64,000 nucleotides of DNA from an uncultured Methylomirabilota bacterium (lineage in GTDB: Bacteria > Methylomirabilota > Methylomirabilia > Methylomirabilales > 2-02-FULL-66-22): the NCBI GenBank assembly GCA_963845565.1, contig CAWJSJ010000005.1, positions 928,001 to 992,000 of the forward strand, given 5' to 3'. How positions within the stretch are numbered: position 1 is the stretch's first letter; each line of letters starts with the position of its first letter. The notes under the pieces are model-generated. The model did not search any database, was not told where the DNA came from, and worked only from the letters and a program-made list of their open reading frames with translations. Positions 12,323 to 43,585 of the stretch are shown piece by piece. A program made the position numbers and the translations under genes.

Positions 12323-12691
12323 TCACCCCGTCTTTCCCCAAACGCCTTGCGGCCGAGCGACCATCGGCCATAGGCCGTCGGCTAACACGACCGGTTTTTT
12401 CGCCAGGTCCTTCCGGGGGTTTGTTGGCCGTGCGCGACTGACGAGCGGGTACCGCTCCGGGTGCTCTAGAGATTCCACCGCCACGTCCGCATCGAGATCG
12501 GGCCAGTAGAGATGGTGGGGGCTCGGGAGCTCCACCTTCGTGATCTGGTCAATGGATGCTTCGCGAAACCATGGAAACTCCTTGAACGAGACGAACACCT
12601 CTCGCTCTCCAAGCAGTAGCCAAAAGCCGTGAGGCGAAATGTTGGCGACCTCAACGGCCGAAGTGCGCTTTCCAGGCGGCGTAGATCTCAT
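12323..12691 (-). CDS. DUF2442 domain protein (putative antitoxin-like partner)
   Basis: EFPWFREA...HLYWPDLDADVAVESLEHPERYPL resembles DUF2442; overlaps the upstream DUF4160 gene. Confidence 0.8.
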   Translation of the reverse strand: MRSTPPGKRTSAVEVANISPHGFWLLLGEREVFVSFKEFPWFREASIDQITKVELPSPHHLYWPDLDADVAVESLEHPERYPLVSRARPTNPRKDLAKKPVVLADGLWPMVARPQGVWGKTG

Positions 12692-12890
12692 CTTCGTGCT
12701 CCCGAATAAGCCGGAGGGCGGTCGCGAGCCGACGCGGGGTCAAACCATAATTCTGTGCCAGCTCAATCACCGGGGCAAGCCAGGACTTCGCCTCGCCAGC
12801 CGCGTGCTGAACGTGGACATGCGGCCGTCGTTCTTCCCGTGAGAAGAAAAAGAACCGATAACCGCGGGCTCGAAGAACCGTCGGGCTCAT
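12651..12890 (-). CDS. DUF4160 domain protein
   Basis: MSPTVLRARGYRFFFFSREERRPHVHV...EAKSWL...AWKAHFG. Confidence 0.85.
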   Translation of the reverse strand: MSPTVLRARGYRFFFFSREERRPHVHVQHAAGEAKSWLAPVIELAQNYGLTPRRLATALRLIREHEDEIYAAWKAHFGR

Positions 12891-36830: not shown

Positions 36831-36866
36831 GGCACCAGAGGGGCGCCTGGTAGAGTGGAGATTTCG

Positions 36867-37169
36867 ATGTCTGAGCGGAGTCTGATTCCGGTGGAGCGGA
36901 TCGAAGGGGCAATCCTCATGCTTAGAGGCCATAAGGTCCTCCTTGACACCGATCTTGCGGCCATGTACGGGGTTGAAACCAAAGCCCTGGTACGTGCGGT
37001 CAAGCGCAACCAAGAGCGCTTTCCGAGCGACTTCATGTTTCAGCTATTGCCCGACGAGTTTGAGGGTTTGAGGTACCATTTTGGCACCTCGAAGTCCCGG
37101 GGCGGCCGGCGGTACCTTCCCTACGCCTTCACCGAACAAGGCGTTGGGATGCTCTCCAGTGTCCTCTAG
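36867..37169 (+). pseudogene. ORF6N domain protein, C-terminally truncated
   Basis: [55 protein letters not shown] then TAG; the tail present in the adjacent paralog is missing. Confidence 0.8.
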
Positions 37170-37182
37170 AGCGGGAGGGAAG

Positions 37183-37800
37183 GTGTCCACACGTGAGCAA
37201 GGTCTACCATCTGCCGCGGTGCGCGTCGAAGACATGATCGTGGCCGTTCGAGGTGAACGGGTAATCTTGGACCACGATTTGGCACGGCTCTATGATGTCA
37301 CGACCAAAGCGTTGAACCAGGCAGTGAAGCGGAACCCCGGACGCTTTCCTTCCGAGTTTATGTTTCGGCTCACTTTTCAAGAGGTTGCGGACTTGAAATC
37401 AGAATCTGTGACGTCAAGAACCAGGACGAACCGGTCACAAGTTGTGACCGGTTCCAAGAAGCACCGAAATCCCCGGTTCCCTCCGTATGCGTTCACGGAA
37501 CACGGCGCCCTCATGGCCGCGAACGTTCTGCGCAGCCCCCAAGCGGTGGACGTGAGCGTGTTTGTGGTTCGTGCGTTTGTCCGGCTTCGCCGGTCCCTGA
37601 CCCACCACGCCGATCTTGCCTACCGCCTTGACAATCTCGAGAAGAAATACGACGCCCAGTTCAAGGTCGTCTTCGACGCCATCCGCCAACTCATGGCCCC
37701 GCCGCCGAAACCAAGGCGCTCCATTGGGTTCAAGGTCGAGGAGGGCCGGCCCGTATACCGGCGACGTCGTCGGCATCGGAGTAACGGCGTAACGGAGTGA
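37183..37800 (+). CDS. ORF6N domain DNA-binding protein
   Basis: RGERVILDHDLARLYDVTTKALNQAVKRNPGRFPSEFMF, YAFTEHGALM, YDAQFKVVFDAIRQLM, IGF. Confidence 0.9.
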   Translation: MSTREQGLPSAAVRVEDMIVAVRGERVILDHDLARLYDVTTKALNQAVKRNPGRFPSEFMFRLTFQEVADLKSESVTSRTRTNRSQVVTGSKKHRNPRFPPYAFTEHGALMAANVLRSPQAVDVSVFVVRAFVRLRRSLTHHADLAYRLDNLEKKYDAQFKVVFDAIRQLMAPPPKPRRSIGFKVEEGRPVYRRRRRHRSNGVTE

Positions 37801-38027
37801 CCCGCGCCACTGTCCCTGTCGAATATCCCTGTCGCCCGCCGGCTTTCGCGTCGAGCAAGGCGGACGGATGTATCCGCGTAGCCCTCGGCAGCGGAAGAGC
37901 ACGATAAAGATTTGACCTCCACCGCTGTCGCTGCCGGCCATCCCTGTCGCCCCGTCGGTACCGCACGCGGCGGCCGAGCGGCCGGCGGGGGCAGTGAGTG
38001 CGGACGCGGCACACTCGGCCGCAGAGC

Positions 38028-38119
38028 GTCGCCCCCCGCGCGGGGGCGCGGATTGAAACTGAATCATCAGGTCATGGCAGATCGTGCAGAACGGTCGCCC
38101 CCCGCGGGGCGTGAGGATT
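38028..38119 (+). CRISPR. Orphan CRISPR mini-array 1 (type I-C-like repeat, one 34-bp spacer, degenerate second repeat)
   Basis: 32-bp repeat GTCGCCCCCCGCGCGGGGGCGCGGATTGAAAC (38028-38059); spacer 38060-38093; GTCGCCCCCCGCGGGGCGTGAGGATT from 38094. Confidence 0.8.
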
Positions 38120-38325
38120 TGGCCCTGGTCCGACTCGCGGCAGATGCCGGCGACGGAGGCAATCGGGAGAGTGCGGCCGGATCTATAAGCCGAGCGTGGA
38201 GAAAAGCCGGGTGGCGGCTTCAGGGAGCGGGTAGGTCTCGACGTCCTTGAGAGCGGCAGTGATCTGCTGGTGAAAGTCGGTCAGGCGTCTGTCTTACCGA
38301 TTAAATTACCTATTACCATTACTTA

Positions 38326-39368
38326 TTACCCAATACGCCGCCATTTGGCCTGCTTTCCGCGACCAAGGCACTCGACGGACTTCTCCGAGGCCATGTCCTT
38401 CAATACCTTCCGAATCATGTCCAGGCTGACCTCCGGGCACCTCTTGTGCAGTTCGTTTACATGAAACGCCCCGACGAAACCCGCTACGGCTTGCCGGACG
38501 GCCTCGGTCTTTTCTCCGAGTGGCGGGGGGTGTTTTCATAGCGTGCTTCGAATTCCTGGTACACCTGTTTCAACGTGTAGAGAAGGTAGTTCACATACGG
38601 CCAGGGATCGTGCCTTCCGTCATGCCACCCCTGTGAACTCGCCTGAAGAGTCTCGTAGTAGCGATCCTTGCTCTGCTCAATGAGGCGTTCCAGGCTGATG
38701 TAGCGACCGGCGGTGAAACCGAGATGGTAAAGCGACTGCAGGAGCAGCAAACGCGACACACGGCCATTGCCGTCACGGAACGGGTGAATGCACAAGAAAT
38801 CGAGGTTCTGGGCGGCCCAGATGACGAGCGGAGGGACCTGTTTGTCTTGAATGGTTTGGTCCGAGAGTCTGCAAAGCTGCTCCATGGCAGCGGGGGTCTC
38901 CTTGGCGGAAAGGGGGCGGAAGCGGACTGTGACGCGGCCATCCTGGTGTTTTTCGATTATCTCGCCGTCCGCTATTTTGAAGCACCCACGGTCCCAGATC
39001 TGCGGGCGGATCAGAGCATGGAGTCGCAGGATAGTCTCCGGCGACACCGAGAGCGTGGCGTGCTGTTCATGGATCAGAGACAGCGCTGTTTGGTACCCGC
39101 GTACCTCCTGTTCGTTGCGGTCCTGTAAATGGCTCTTGCCGAAGATCACGGTGCCGACCCGTCGTTGATCGATCTCTACTCCCTCGATCCGATTAGAGGC
39201 GACCGCACTTTCGATCAGGGCGTGTTCGCGCAGCACCTTCAGTCTTTGAGGCGATTGTCTTGTAAACAGTTCCTGCTTGCCGCGGTATTCGGCGAGATCG
39301 TTCAACAGCCAGACAGTGGCCGTAGGGATCTGGGGCAGTTGACGGAAGAACTGTTCCAGTGTTCTCAT
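38326..39368 (-). CDS. Fic family protein with C-terminal HTH-like domain, frameshifted at homopolymer 38525-38530
   Basis: HPFRDGNGRVSR Fic motif, SNRIEG inhibitory-type motif; tail LGEKTEAV...SLDMIRKVLK...GRGKQAKWRRIG lies in a shifted frame ending TAA at 38326; visibly lower GC. Confidence 0.88.
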
Positions 39369-39689
39369 GTTCGTTCTTAATTCTCGATTGTTGATTTTCA
39401 GGGGCACGGTACGATGGCGCCCTGTTTCTGGACCGCAAGCCCGCCAGGGGTGGGCCCACCGGACCGACCACGGGGTGCCGGGCTCGCGGCTTGCGTCCTC
39501 GTGGGTCAGGGGGAAGTATCTGGCGGACCAGAGACGAACGTCAAGGGGAAAGACGGACCCTCGAAAGCCGGGTCATGAGGGGACGTGATCCCGGACAGCG
39601 TACAGACGCTGCGGACGGCCCGCTCGGCGCGCTACGCCCGTTCCGCGGACCGAGCCGACTTCGTCTCCTTCGATCCATCAAACTTTGCG

Positions 39690-39768
39690 AGCCTCCCCCG
39701 CACGTGGGCGTGGATTGAAACTCACCCCTGACGCCTCCCGCCTCACGATGCTGTTATCGCCCCCCGCA
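39690..39768 (+). CRISPR. Orphan CRISPR mini-array 2 (degenerate type I-C-like repeat, 34-bp spacer, truncated repeat)
   Basis: GCCTCCCCCGCACGTGGGCGTGGATTGAAAC ends at 39721; exactly 34 bp later ATCGCCCCCCGCA (39756-39768), the 5' half of the repeat. Confidence 0.65.
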
Positions 39769-39860
39769 TCGCTGCAACTTGATCTGGATCAAGGCGGGCG
39801 GCGGGGCAGTGGGGCATGATGGGGTCAGGTTTTCGGCCGATCTGCTGGAGGGCACACATC

Positions 39861-40472
39861 ATGGACGCACACGCGCCGGGTCCGGTTCCGACTTCCTCGA
39901 GCGACGACTCGCCCATCGCGATTCTCGCGGAGGAGCACGCGCTGATCCTCCGGGCCGTGGAACTCTTGGAGCGCGGCCTGGCCCGGCTGGAAGCGGGAAC
40001 GTCCATGGGCGGGCCGTTCTTCGCGGCGTTGGTGGAGTTCTTCCAGGTCTTCGCGGATCGGTACCATCACGGCAAGGAGGAGGGTATTTTGTTCCCGTTC
40101 ATGGTGGCGGAGATGGACTACCCCCAGAAGAGCGGCCCGGTCGGGGTGCTGTCCTCGGACCACACGGCTGGCCGGGCCCATGTCCGGGCCATGGCCGATG
40201 CGGCGGCCCGGCTGGAGGCGGAGCCTGCGGTAGCGTCGGAACTCCTGGAGCACGGCCAGGCGTATGCGGTGCTCCTTCGTGCGCACATTGACCGCGAGGA
40301 TCACAAGGTGTTCCCGACGGTCGAAGACTTCCTCGGGTCGGACGAGCGCGCCGGTCTCTGCGCGGCGTTCGCTCGATTCGAGTCGGCGGAAGGGGGACAG
40401 CGCACCGCGGCGCACTACGCGGACGTGGTCGGGGTGCTGGAACGTGACATGGGATGGCCGGATCGCTCGTGA
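39861..40472 (+). CDS. Hemerythrin domain protein
   Basis: LAEEH, HHGKEEGILFP, DH, HIDRED..FP. Confidence 0.88.
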   Translation: MDAHAPGPVPTSSSDDSPIAILAEEHALILRAVELLERGLARLEAGTSMGGPFFAALVEFFQVFADRYHHGKEEGILFPFMVAEMDYPQKSGPVGVLSSDHTAGRAHVRAMADAAARLEAEPAVASELLEHGQAYAVLLRAHIDREDHKVFPTVEDFLGSDERAGLCAAFARFESAEGGQRTAAHYADVVGVLERDMGWPDRS

Positions 40473-40550
40473 GGCTGCGGGCGACCGCGCGGCGACGGCC
40501 AGGACCGCAACCACATTTGGAGACGGGTGAGAGCAGAAAGGGATAGCGTC

Positions 40551-41144
40551 ATGTCGAATCACGAGCATGGACATCACCATGGCGAGGAGGGGGCGACCCC
40601 CACGCAGATCCTGATGGCGGAGCACGAACTGATCCTCCAGGCGCTCGAGGCGCTGGGGAAGCGGCTGGATCGGATGGGTGACGACCCGACGCCGGCGGAT
40701 CGGGTCTACTTCGAGAAGGCCGTCGAATTCCTGCGAGGGTTCGCCGACAAGTGCCACCACGGGAAGGAAGAGGATCTCCTGTTCAAGCGGTTGGGCGAGC
40801 AGGGCTTCCCCACCCAGGGTGGGCCGATCGCGGTGATGTTGTCGGAGCACCAGGCCGGCCGGGCCTTCATCCGCGGGATCGCGGAGGGGGCGGCCAAGAT
40901 CGGGTCGGACCCCCGGGCCGCGGAGACGATCCGGCACAACGGCTGGGGGTACATCGAGTTGCTCCGCAATCACATCGCCAAGGAGAACCAGGTCCTATTC
41001 CCGATGGCGGATCGGGCTTTGTCGGCCGAGGATCAGCACGATCTCGCGCACGCCTTTGAGCGGTTCGAAGCGCAGGAGACGGGGGCCGGCGTCCACGAGC
41101 GGATGGTCGGGCTGCTCCAGGAGCTGCGCGCTGGCGCCGGGTAG
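40551..41144 (+). CDS. Hemerythrin domain protein
   Basis: LMAEH, CHHGKEEDLLF, GGPIAVMLSEH, HIAKENQVLFP. Confidence 0.92.
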   Translation: MSNHEHGHHHGEEGATPTQILMAEHELILQALEALGKRLDRMGDDPTPADRVYFEKAVEFLRGFADKCHHGKEEDLLFKRLGEQGFPTQGGPIAVMLSEHQAGRAFIRGIAEGAAKIGSDPRAAETIRHNGWGYIELLRNHIAKENQVLFPMADRALSAEDQHDLAHAFERFEAQETGAGVHERMVGLLQELRAGAG

Positions 41145-41220
41145 CCCAACGCGAACTGTTTGAACCGCCAAGGCGCCAAGGACGCCAAGACGATTAGGGT
41201 TGAGAGCGGATTCAGGATGG

Positions 41221-41373
41221 CAAGCTGCTGAAGAAACTCACTCTCGTGCAGGCTGTTCAAAAAGGTCCAGATGCAAGGCGGTGTGCGGATGCCCGAGTGA
41301 GGCGTACTGGAGGTACGCCGCAGCGAGTGGCGAGGCGCGCCAACGCCGCAGATGGGCGTTTTTCAACGGCCTG
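41221..41373. repeat. Family A MITE/REP-like element, copy 5
   Basis: CAGGCTGTTCAAAAAGGTCCAGATGCAAGGCG...GGCGTTTTTCAACGGCCTG. Confidence 0.88.
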
Positions 41374-41385
41374 CGAGGAGGGGCC

Positions 41386-41868
41386 ATGGAGACGATGCTG
41401 ATCCAAGAATTTCGGGCCGACCACCAGCGGATCCGCGGGGCCCTGTTGCGACTCCACCGGGCCATCGAGGATGGCGACGTTCCCCTCGTGCGGACGATCC
41501 TGGGAGGCGCCGATACCTTGCTGGGAGCGCACTTCAAGTTCGAGGAGCTGCACTTGTACCCGGCCCTCTCCGGATTTCTCGGCGACGACGGCGTCCGGCA
41601 GATGTTTCACGAGCACGACAGCATCTTCCAGGGCGTCGGCGACCTCATCGGGCTGGCCCAGCAAGCCACCTGGGCCGATCCGGAACGGGATGCGGCGCTG
41701 GAACATCTCGGGCTCGTTGGCGACCACCCCGAGAACTGCGACGACCTCTGCCGCTACATCGAGCGCCTCCCGACCGCCCAGCAGGAATCGCTGCTGGCGG
41801 AGATGCACGCGATCCGGCGGGAACGTCCCGCGTTCACCGCCTACGCGACCGAACGACGAATCGCCTAA
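41386..41868 (+). CDS. Divergent hemerythrin-like protein
   Basis: GAGGAGG RBS; ADH, HFKFEELHLYP, MFHEH. Confidence 0.75.
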   Translation: METMLIQEFRADHQRIRGALLRLHRAIEDGDVPLVRTILGGADTLLGAHFKFEELHLYPALSGFLGDDGVRQMFHEHDSIFQGVGDLIGLAQQATWADPERDAALEHLGLVGDHPENCDDLCRYIERLPTAQQESLLAEMHAIRRERPAFTAYATERRIA

Positions 41869-42020
41869 CAGGCCGCTGAAAACGGCCCATCTGCGGCGTT
41901 GGGCTGCTTAGGCACTCGTTGCGGCGTACGCGCAGTACGCCTCACTCGGCCTTGCGCATCCCGCCTGGCATCTGGACCGTTTTGAGCGGCCTGGGGAGAA
42001 GCGAGTTTTTCCGCATCCTG
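41869..42020. repeat. Family A MITE/REP-like element, copy 6
   Basis: Starts immediately after the TAA stop: CAGGCCGCTGAAAACGGCCCATCTGC...TTTTTCCGCATCCTG. Confidence 0.88.
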
Positions 42021-43430: not shown

Positions 43431-43443
43431 TATCCGGTTGCCT

Positions 43444-43585
43444 CAGGTTGCTCAAAGAGGTCCAGATGCAAGGCGGTTAGCCGCAGGCGGGGTACCCAGG
43501 CCGCTGGGTCCAGACGTACTGGAGGTACGTCGCAGCGAGTGCCGAGGCAAACCAACGCTGCAGATGGGCCTTTTTGAGCAGCCTG
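43444..43585. repeat. Family A MITE/REP-like element, copy 7 (intra-operon, outer unit absent)
   Basis: CAGGTTGCTCAAAGAGGTCCAGATGCAAGGCG...GGCCTTTTTGAGCAGCCTG. Confidence 0.88.

Follow-up and report, generated by a model that had tools for sequence, protein, structure and literature searches.

Stand-alone mini-arrays and orphan or degraded CRISPR arrays were treated by Shmakov et al. (10.1101/2023.03.03.530964), who regard mini-arrays without positional conservation or a target as degraded and non-functional—a statement made there for type III loci. The CRISIS units are found between the genes cas3 and cas5c and base-pair with the promoter of their cargo beside TTC or TTA (10.1101/2024.12.27.630466); for the published type I-C regulator, this pairing extends over 16 bp beside TTC. 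Among Fic proteins, an N-terminal (S/T)xxxE(G/N) motif defines the self-inhibited class II (PMC3667792).

In the locus described here, two type I-C-like repeat units stand on either side of a Fic gene. They resemble the mini-arrays of Shmakov et al. in their near-canonical first repeat, 34-nt spacer and degraded distal repeat, and both signs of degradation given there apply to them. Unlike for those mini-arrays, no cas locus was found nearby or elsewhere in the genome, and one distal "repeat" is fused to a restriction–modification pseudogene. With CreA/CreR and CRISIS they share the type I-C repeat, the conserved 3′ handle and an adjoining defence-type gene—Fic genes being named as likely type I-F cargo in 10.1101/2024.12.27.630466—whereas cas genes and a TTC- or TTA-flanked target in the linked promoter, as described for CRISIS, are missing here. 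Like the RNA anti-CRISPRs of PMC10651486, the repeats lie distant from cas genes; unlike them, they come as two-repeat units with no recognisable prophage or plasmid, no identified acr neighbour and no matching host system. The Fic protein carries the HxFx(D/E)GNGRxxR and N-terminal (S/T)xxxE(G/N) motifs as does the class II protein SoFic (PMC3667792), to which it is a distant relative only (its NCBIfam SoFic score is 42 bits, the cut-off being 550), and is a putative class II member. We think it likely, with good confidence, that the units are what remains of a lost type I-C array, left without function amid broken defence genes, and not a working regulatory module.

Anatomy of the Two Repeat Units

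The window is a stretch of 64,000 nucleotides from a 5.36-Mb genome assembly (G000; 98.7% complete, 6 contigs). It was compared with 40 relatives, including the closest relative G009 and the genomes G026, G030, G033, G036 and G039 of the sister genus g7; the intact type I-C array of G030 served as the reference repeat. The features are, in window positions:

36855..37169, plus strand: ORF6N-domain gene of 104 aa with its stop just past the domain (Pfam ORF6N, E 7.7e-32)
37081..37800, plus strand: second ORF6N-domain ORF (Pfam ORF6N, E 3.2e-28, residues 52–149)
37922..38027, no strand: non-coding element trailing the ORF6N genes, cut at the first base of repeat 1
38028..38059, plus strand: repeat 1, near-canonical type I-C with intact hairpin (1 mismatch to the G030 repeat)
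38060..38093, plus strand: spacer 1, 34 nt, no target found
38094..38106, plus strand: 5′ half repeat fused to the restriction–modification remnant
38104..38284, minus strand: remnant of codons 1–60 of a type IIG restriction–modification gene of ~1,325 aa (tblastn)
38326..39368, minus strand: Fic gene (Pfam Fic)
39391..39558, minus strand: fic upstream element with a sigma-70-like promoter match at 39544–39515
39690..39721, plus strand: repeat 2, decayed type I-C (6 mismatches) with damaged hairpin and 5′ end and intact 3′ handle
39722..39755, plus strand: spacer 2, 34 nt, with a simple repeat of three heptamers at its core
39756..39768, plus strand: half repeat (5′ half) of unit 2, its first base canonical in runs X8 and X9; recognisable in G009
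39779..39792, no strand: palindrome bounding the variable region on the right, ahead of three hemerythrin-domain genes

The original prediction of two type I-C-like units, both on the plus strand and with 34-nt spacers, is borne out by these coordinates—as is the order of repeat, 34 nt and 5′ half repeat at 39690–39768. Their assignment to type I-C likewise holds: repeats 1 and 2 differ from the G030 repeat at 1 and 6 of 32 positions, the G030 locus of this array bears Cas3, Cas8c (Csd1), Cas7 and Cas1 by Pfam, and 34 nt is the modal spacer length of the array (29 of 42 spacers). Sites within 8 mismatches of either repeat number only these two in the 5.36-Mb genome; the next best site has 9 mismatches to the G030 repeat, and the tail expected by chance begins at 10. 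Repeat 1 scores 25.7 bits with Rfam CRISPR-DR9, under the gathering score of 45, and its predicted fold is −16.2 kcal/mol. For repeat 2, the predicted fold is −8.4 kcal/mol (z 0.43), compared with −15.1 for the canonical repeat. The 3′ handle is intact in the first repeat of both units; judged by its sequence, unit 2 is drifting.

Contigs of X8 and X9, from two different studies, contain unit 2 and carry canonical bases at positions 39705 and 39756, which are non-canonical in the G000 assembly. Unit 1 is spanned by one X8 contig with a single difference and no gaps; the X9 contig has 18 differences in all, with positions listed for 6. In run X1, little of the locus was covered in the share read. 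A joint of 38063 to 39695 in X8 is read as an array of another organism because its sides measure 28 nt with a foreign spacer in between. In the RNA run X19, the cover over repeat 1 carries foreign spacers, and thus stems from arrays of other organisms and is uninformative on expression; unit 2 is without cover there, which has no bearing on expression either.

The heptamer run in the core of spacer 2 is one of six such runs in the genome, and the core is matched within 2 mismatches in 9 of the 21 genus genomes (control hits 0). The reading of spacer 2 as mere host DNA beside a lone repeat was rejected because a half repeat follows at 34 nt, is canonical in X8 and X9 and recurs in G009.

Junctions of Unit 1

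Unit 1 is bounded by two junctions, each of which falls at or within a repeat; that on the left coincides with base 1 of repeat 1. On this side, the element that trails the ORF6N genes (37922–38027) matches C2:674435–674541 of the same genome at 81%, the match ending at 38028; both this copy and the copy in G009 run on without any repeat.

On the right side, a 36-aa frame downstream of fic matched nine proteins, one of which, used as a query, led to enzymes of ~1,325 aa of the Eco57I/N6-MTase/TaqI_C type (domains Eco57I, N6_Mtase and TaqI_C found in two scanned homologues and precomputed for others). Against five full-length proteins, tblastn gave 54–78% identity (E 6e-15 to 3e-13) and placed codons 1–60 at 38284–38104 on the minus strand. 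This remnant has lost its start codon, is frameshifted after codon 32 and is truncated inside the second repeat of unit 1. Hence, the "degenerate 3′ half" of unit 1 is coding sequence of a dead gene. The degenerate repeat of the original prediction is repeat-like from 38094 for ~13 nt, while the remainder is antisense of the restriction–modification gene, which, on this alignment, resembles the 3′ arm of the repeat by chance. A deletion guided by microhomology would be the simplest reading of the right junction. A restriction–modification gene lies directly downstream of fic in one of 49 Fic loci (L025) and nearby in three more.

The Fic Gene and Its Neighbourhood

The Fic gene differs in GC content from the window (57.5% versus 66.0%), and with its Pfam match the predicted lower-GC Fic gene between the units is recovered, together with the adjoining ORF6N cluster in the form of two ORF6N ORFs upstream. 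The second of these probably starts near 37234, as suggested by where its domain begins. The catalytic motif of Fic is canonical (residues 195–206) and the N-terminal (S/T)xxxE(G/N) motif is present (residues 58–63), which places the protein in class II at the motif level; the N-terminal motif also occurs in 38 of 49 homologous loci. In the G000 assembly, the ORF is frameshifted near 38524–38530 (the intact homologue has 347 aa), and the G009 fic is frameshifted at another place. At 38524, the run has one more base in X9 and in one X8 contig, so the frameshift is likely an assembly error or a strain variant.

The promoter match upstream of fic is the sole match in the region and lies on the minus strand. 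Its ~170-nt element recurs at several unrelated loci of the genus; at L068, the same promoter-bearing element precedes a gene for a four-helix bundle (23S_rRNA_IVP). Judged from these motifs, Fic would be independent of the repeats, with its own promoter and its own inhibitory helix. The original prediction had asked whether Fic homologues keep flanking mini-arrays: a repeat within 9 mismatches or an array was found at none of 52 other Fic loci (49 from the homologue search and 3 from relatives, many of them short; G009 treated apart). Likewise, none of 15 further loci, taken from upstream of other hemerythrin genes and from other copies of the fic promoter element, has a repeat. At other places, the fic cassette and the promoter element are thus free of repeats.

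The palindrome at the right edge, which we take to be of FNR type, is identical in G009 and is one of five such sites in the genome. It precedes three tandem hemerythrin-domain genes (Pfam Hemerythrin; 39779–41868), possibly an operon for the response to NO or oxygen. An intergenic repeat of ~145 nt occurs in direct and inverted copies, 79–91% alike, at 41234–41378, 41864–42008 and 43441–43585 of the window, around the hemerythrin and ABC transporter genes. At 12654–12890, a solitary DUF4160 gene lies amid housekeeping genes.

Searches for CRISPR Machinery and Spacer Targets

The absence of cas genes noted for the window also held in searches of the genome: no profile match to Cas7c, Cas1, Cas5, Cas2 or RAMP was found in the 98.7% complete assembly, the control genomes being positive. 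With 11 Cas proteins of relatives, tblastn of G000 reached a best E of 0.04 (ABC-F control 1e-179), and Cas8c and Cas3 of G030 gave no hits. The Pfam search for Cas8c was uninformative because no control genome gave a match; two Cas3_HD matches were both below the cut-off. By profile searches and tblastn there is hence no Cascade found anywhere in the genome, which the original prediction had counted among the outcomes that would speak against it. The type I-C operon and further arrays that it proposed to look for were not found either: there is no array or third repeat in G000, and the four hits of a periodicity scan were all coding-type tandem repeats by eye. These searches cover the six contigs of the assembly. 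In the genus, where many genomes are incomplete, none of 21 genomes gave a Cas7c match, and 2 of 20 others gave one to Cas1. The stretches upstream of either unit match the CRISPR loci of relatives in nothing beyond the repeat itself. With the ORF6N-downstream element in front of unit 1 and no cas genes in the genome, the units do not qualify as a functional array.

For the spacers, the best PAM-flanked seed in the local 11 kb measures 5 nt each; among 40 shuffles, 15 and 19 reach as much. In the whole genome, no PAM-flanked 11-nt seed exists for spacer 1. For spacer 2 there is a single one, a perfect TTC-flanked match of 11 nt (C2:1463173, minus strand) immediately ahead of a ribosome-binding site and a start codon; 4 of 60 shuffles equal it. 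It makes the strongest case for regulation, and a weak one given that two spacers were tested. Across 36 candidate units (some weak) in 12 regions, no local PAM-plus-seed target exceeds the shuffles, and the best seed has 8 nt.

In the phage collection, spacer 2 has no match, and spacer 1 has no record covering 80%—its 26 partial matches reach 21 nt at best. Exact patterns in IMG/VR returned 0, 1, 11 and 0 loci. The 11 hits match 19–24 of 34 nt and lack TTC, and the single hit of spacer 2 covers 20 nt and has GAG beside it; as protospacers, all were judged to be chance. Of the targets with a TTC-flanked seed that were to be looked for, especially near fic, no local one was found, and the viral matches are partial and without TTC.

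The Locus in Relatives

Among the 40 relatives, G009 bears the only orthologous locus, ~90% identical on both flanks. It is without unit 1. At the position of unit 2 it carries a repeat with 13 mismatches, a 34-nt spacer unrelated to spacer 2 and a half repeat that can still be made out, followed by the same FNR-type box. The geometry of repeat, 34 nt and half repeat thus survives in G000 and G009 despite the differing spacers, and these different surviving spacers would fit an independent collapse of a longer array. As a mark of simple decay, the original prediction had named a cas operon or long array in related genomes at the same place. None was found at the exact position among the 40 relatives, and the sole ortholog, in G009, is also cas-less. 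The unit 2 spacer of G009 (L065:4602–4635) contains an operator-like inverted repeat of 8 bp with no second copy in five genomes searched. In the same assembly, the stretch from glycerol kinase to ORF6N appears twice (C18:27000–31072 and C19:3500–7000), probably as an assembly overlap.

The repeat pattern was found in 9 of 41 genomes. A graded series is seen in the sister genus g7 at the ABC-F loci of G026, G036, G039, G030 and G033 (L104, L106, L107/L108, L112 and L113, respectively). G030 has type I-C cas genes, 43 repeats and remnants around toxin–antitoxin genes beside the ABC-F gene; G033 has the same array end beside ABC-F, its type I-C cas genes being located on a different contig. In G026, leader and first repeat persist (78.5% over 396 nt), together with mini-units between toxin–antitoxin genes, and no cas1, cas2, cas7c or RAMP gene was found. 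G036 and G039 bear several repeat remnants between PIN and AbrB/Doc cassettes; the former has RAMP genes elsewhere and the latter type I-E genes, neither with a type I-C Cas7 above the cut-off. Across these five genomes, PIN, AbrB/Doc and other toxin–antitoxin cassettes between array and ABC-F vary in combination and order, many of them separated by type I-C repeat remnants. This series from intact array to remnants, with no local seed above 8 nt, makes mini-units bracketing toxin-like genes an ordinary end state of type I-C decay in this order.

Some details of these loci are recorded here in their own right. In G030, one cassette lies between a repeat without its 3′ end and a repeat without its 5′ end. 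In G036, solitary repeats at L106:8578 and 9802 share identical 8 upstream bases, which suggests a duplicated leader end plus repeat. A three-repeat array with a 33-nt repeat variant adjoins cas6 in L085 (G004:C107); no Cas7c was found in G004.

Origin of the Repeat Units

The third option of the original prediction—the relic of a deleted CRISPR-cas locus—is the one supported by the absence of cas genes, the fusion of unit 1 with a dead gene and the divergence of G009. The small chromosomal region between the glycerol-kinase gene and the hemerythrin operon would then be a hotspot, in which an array was formerly resident or into which it was carried. Self-contained defence cassettes, namely the ORF6N genes and fic followed by the restriction–modification gene, would have come among the repeats. 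The cas genes would have been lost from the lineage, and deletions would then have collapsed the region: one may have brought the ORF6N-downstream element up against base 1 of a repeat, and another may have fused the next repeat, at its middle, with the restriction–modification gene at codon 60, probably via short microhomology. Such deletions, in an order and by a mechanism that we infer, would leave the junctions seen at unit 1. With no Cas5c to cut the transcript and no Cascade to load it, the repeats would drift. Transcription of fic would start at the gene's own promoter, and the protein would be kept in check by an inhibitory helix of its own, as its motifs suggest, independently of the repeats.

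Several observations do not sit easily with decay of a lost array. No relative has an intact array or cas operon at the exact position, repeat 1 is still one mismatch from canonical, and the geometry of unit 2 is kept in G000 and G009 though the spacer differs. The TTC-flanked 11-nt seed of spacer 2 on C2 (equalled by 4 of 60 shuffles) points in the same direction, and as the assembly has six contigs, cas genes may lie in one of its gaps or on a plasmid that was not assembled.

The repeats might instead be landing or recombination sites for small defence cassettes, the trailer end of the array acting as an integron-like platform. We hold this to be unlikely, and equally that in this order a type I-C repeat platform for toxin–antitoxin, Fic and restriction–modification cassettes outlasts the cas genes, or that the fic cassette between the units and the base-1 junction of repeat 1 are products of such a platform. 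The differing combinations and orders of PIN and AbrB/Doc cassettes in the five g7 genomes, many separated by repeat remnants, would fit, as would the ends of unit 1, and the reading can be combined with cas loss. However, cassette homology mostly ends tens to more than 100 bases inside the repeats, short of their edges, one pairwise match (G036/G039) ran through a repeat, and some cassette boundaries in G033 are without a repeat. The fic cassette with its promoter element needs no repeats at its other sites, no recombinase was found in the window, and insertion into dispensable DNA followed by deletion yields the same picture. Among the papers listed by literature searches, none deals with repeat-bounded defence cassettes.

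A Cascade-dependent regulatory or addiction module, the first suggestion of the original prediction, has become very improbable. Here, crRNA-like RNAs would guide a type I-C Cascade, in trans or recently lost, to repress fic or another promoter in the manner of CreA/CreR or CRISIS. The anatomy of repeat, spacer and degraded repeat does fit the mini-arrays of 10.1101/2023.03.03.530964, Fic genes under likely control by type I-F crlRNAs are mentioned in 10.1101/2024.12.27.630466, the 3′ handle is intact in both first repeats, and the seed of spacer 2 lies before a gene start on C2. Against this stand the failure to find a cognate Cascade, which for such regulators is usually encoded in the same locus, and a best local seed of 5 nt, compared with 16 bp beside TTC in the published type I-C case; a TTC- or TTA-flanked seed of 10–16 nt was not found in the linked promoter. 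Moreover, the units are not conserved—the spacer differs in G009—the hairpin of repeat 2 is damaged, and Fic has a class II inhibitory motif of its own.

The decoy island of the original prediction, with the units acting as RNA anti-CRISPRs (Racr), is hardly credible. Solitary repeat units do inhibit type I-C in the published tests (PMC10651486), and read-through into unit 1 from the co-oriented ORF6N genes upstream is possible. Racr repeats, however, are solitary copies on mobile elements, often preceded by a promoter or acr gene, whereas housekeeping and transport genes make up the flanks here, the 49 + 9 window ORFs scanned include no integrase, phage gene or other mobile element, and no plus-strand promoter match was found in 37750–39900. 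Both units also possess a spacer and a further half repeat, and a host type I-C system as the object of inhibition was not found, Cas7c being absent from the matches of all 21 genus genomes.

Conclusions and Perspectives

As a relic of a type I-C array, the locus matters little by itself. If repeats did attract or shuffle cassettes—the unlikely case of landing sites—this would be a new role for CRISPR repeats in the building of defence islands. For screens of mini-arrays, the locus provides a caution: a unit of repeat, spacer and "degenerate repeat" can be a deletion junction. The series in the sister genus, in turn, shows stages of type I-C loci decaying to mini-units between toxin–antitoxin genes.
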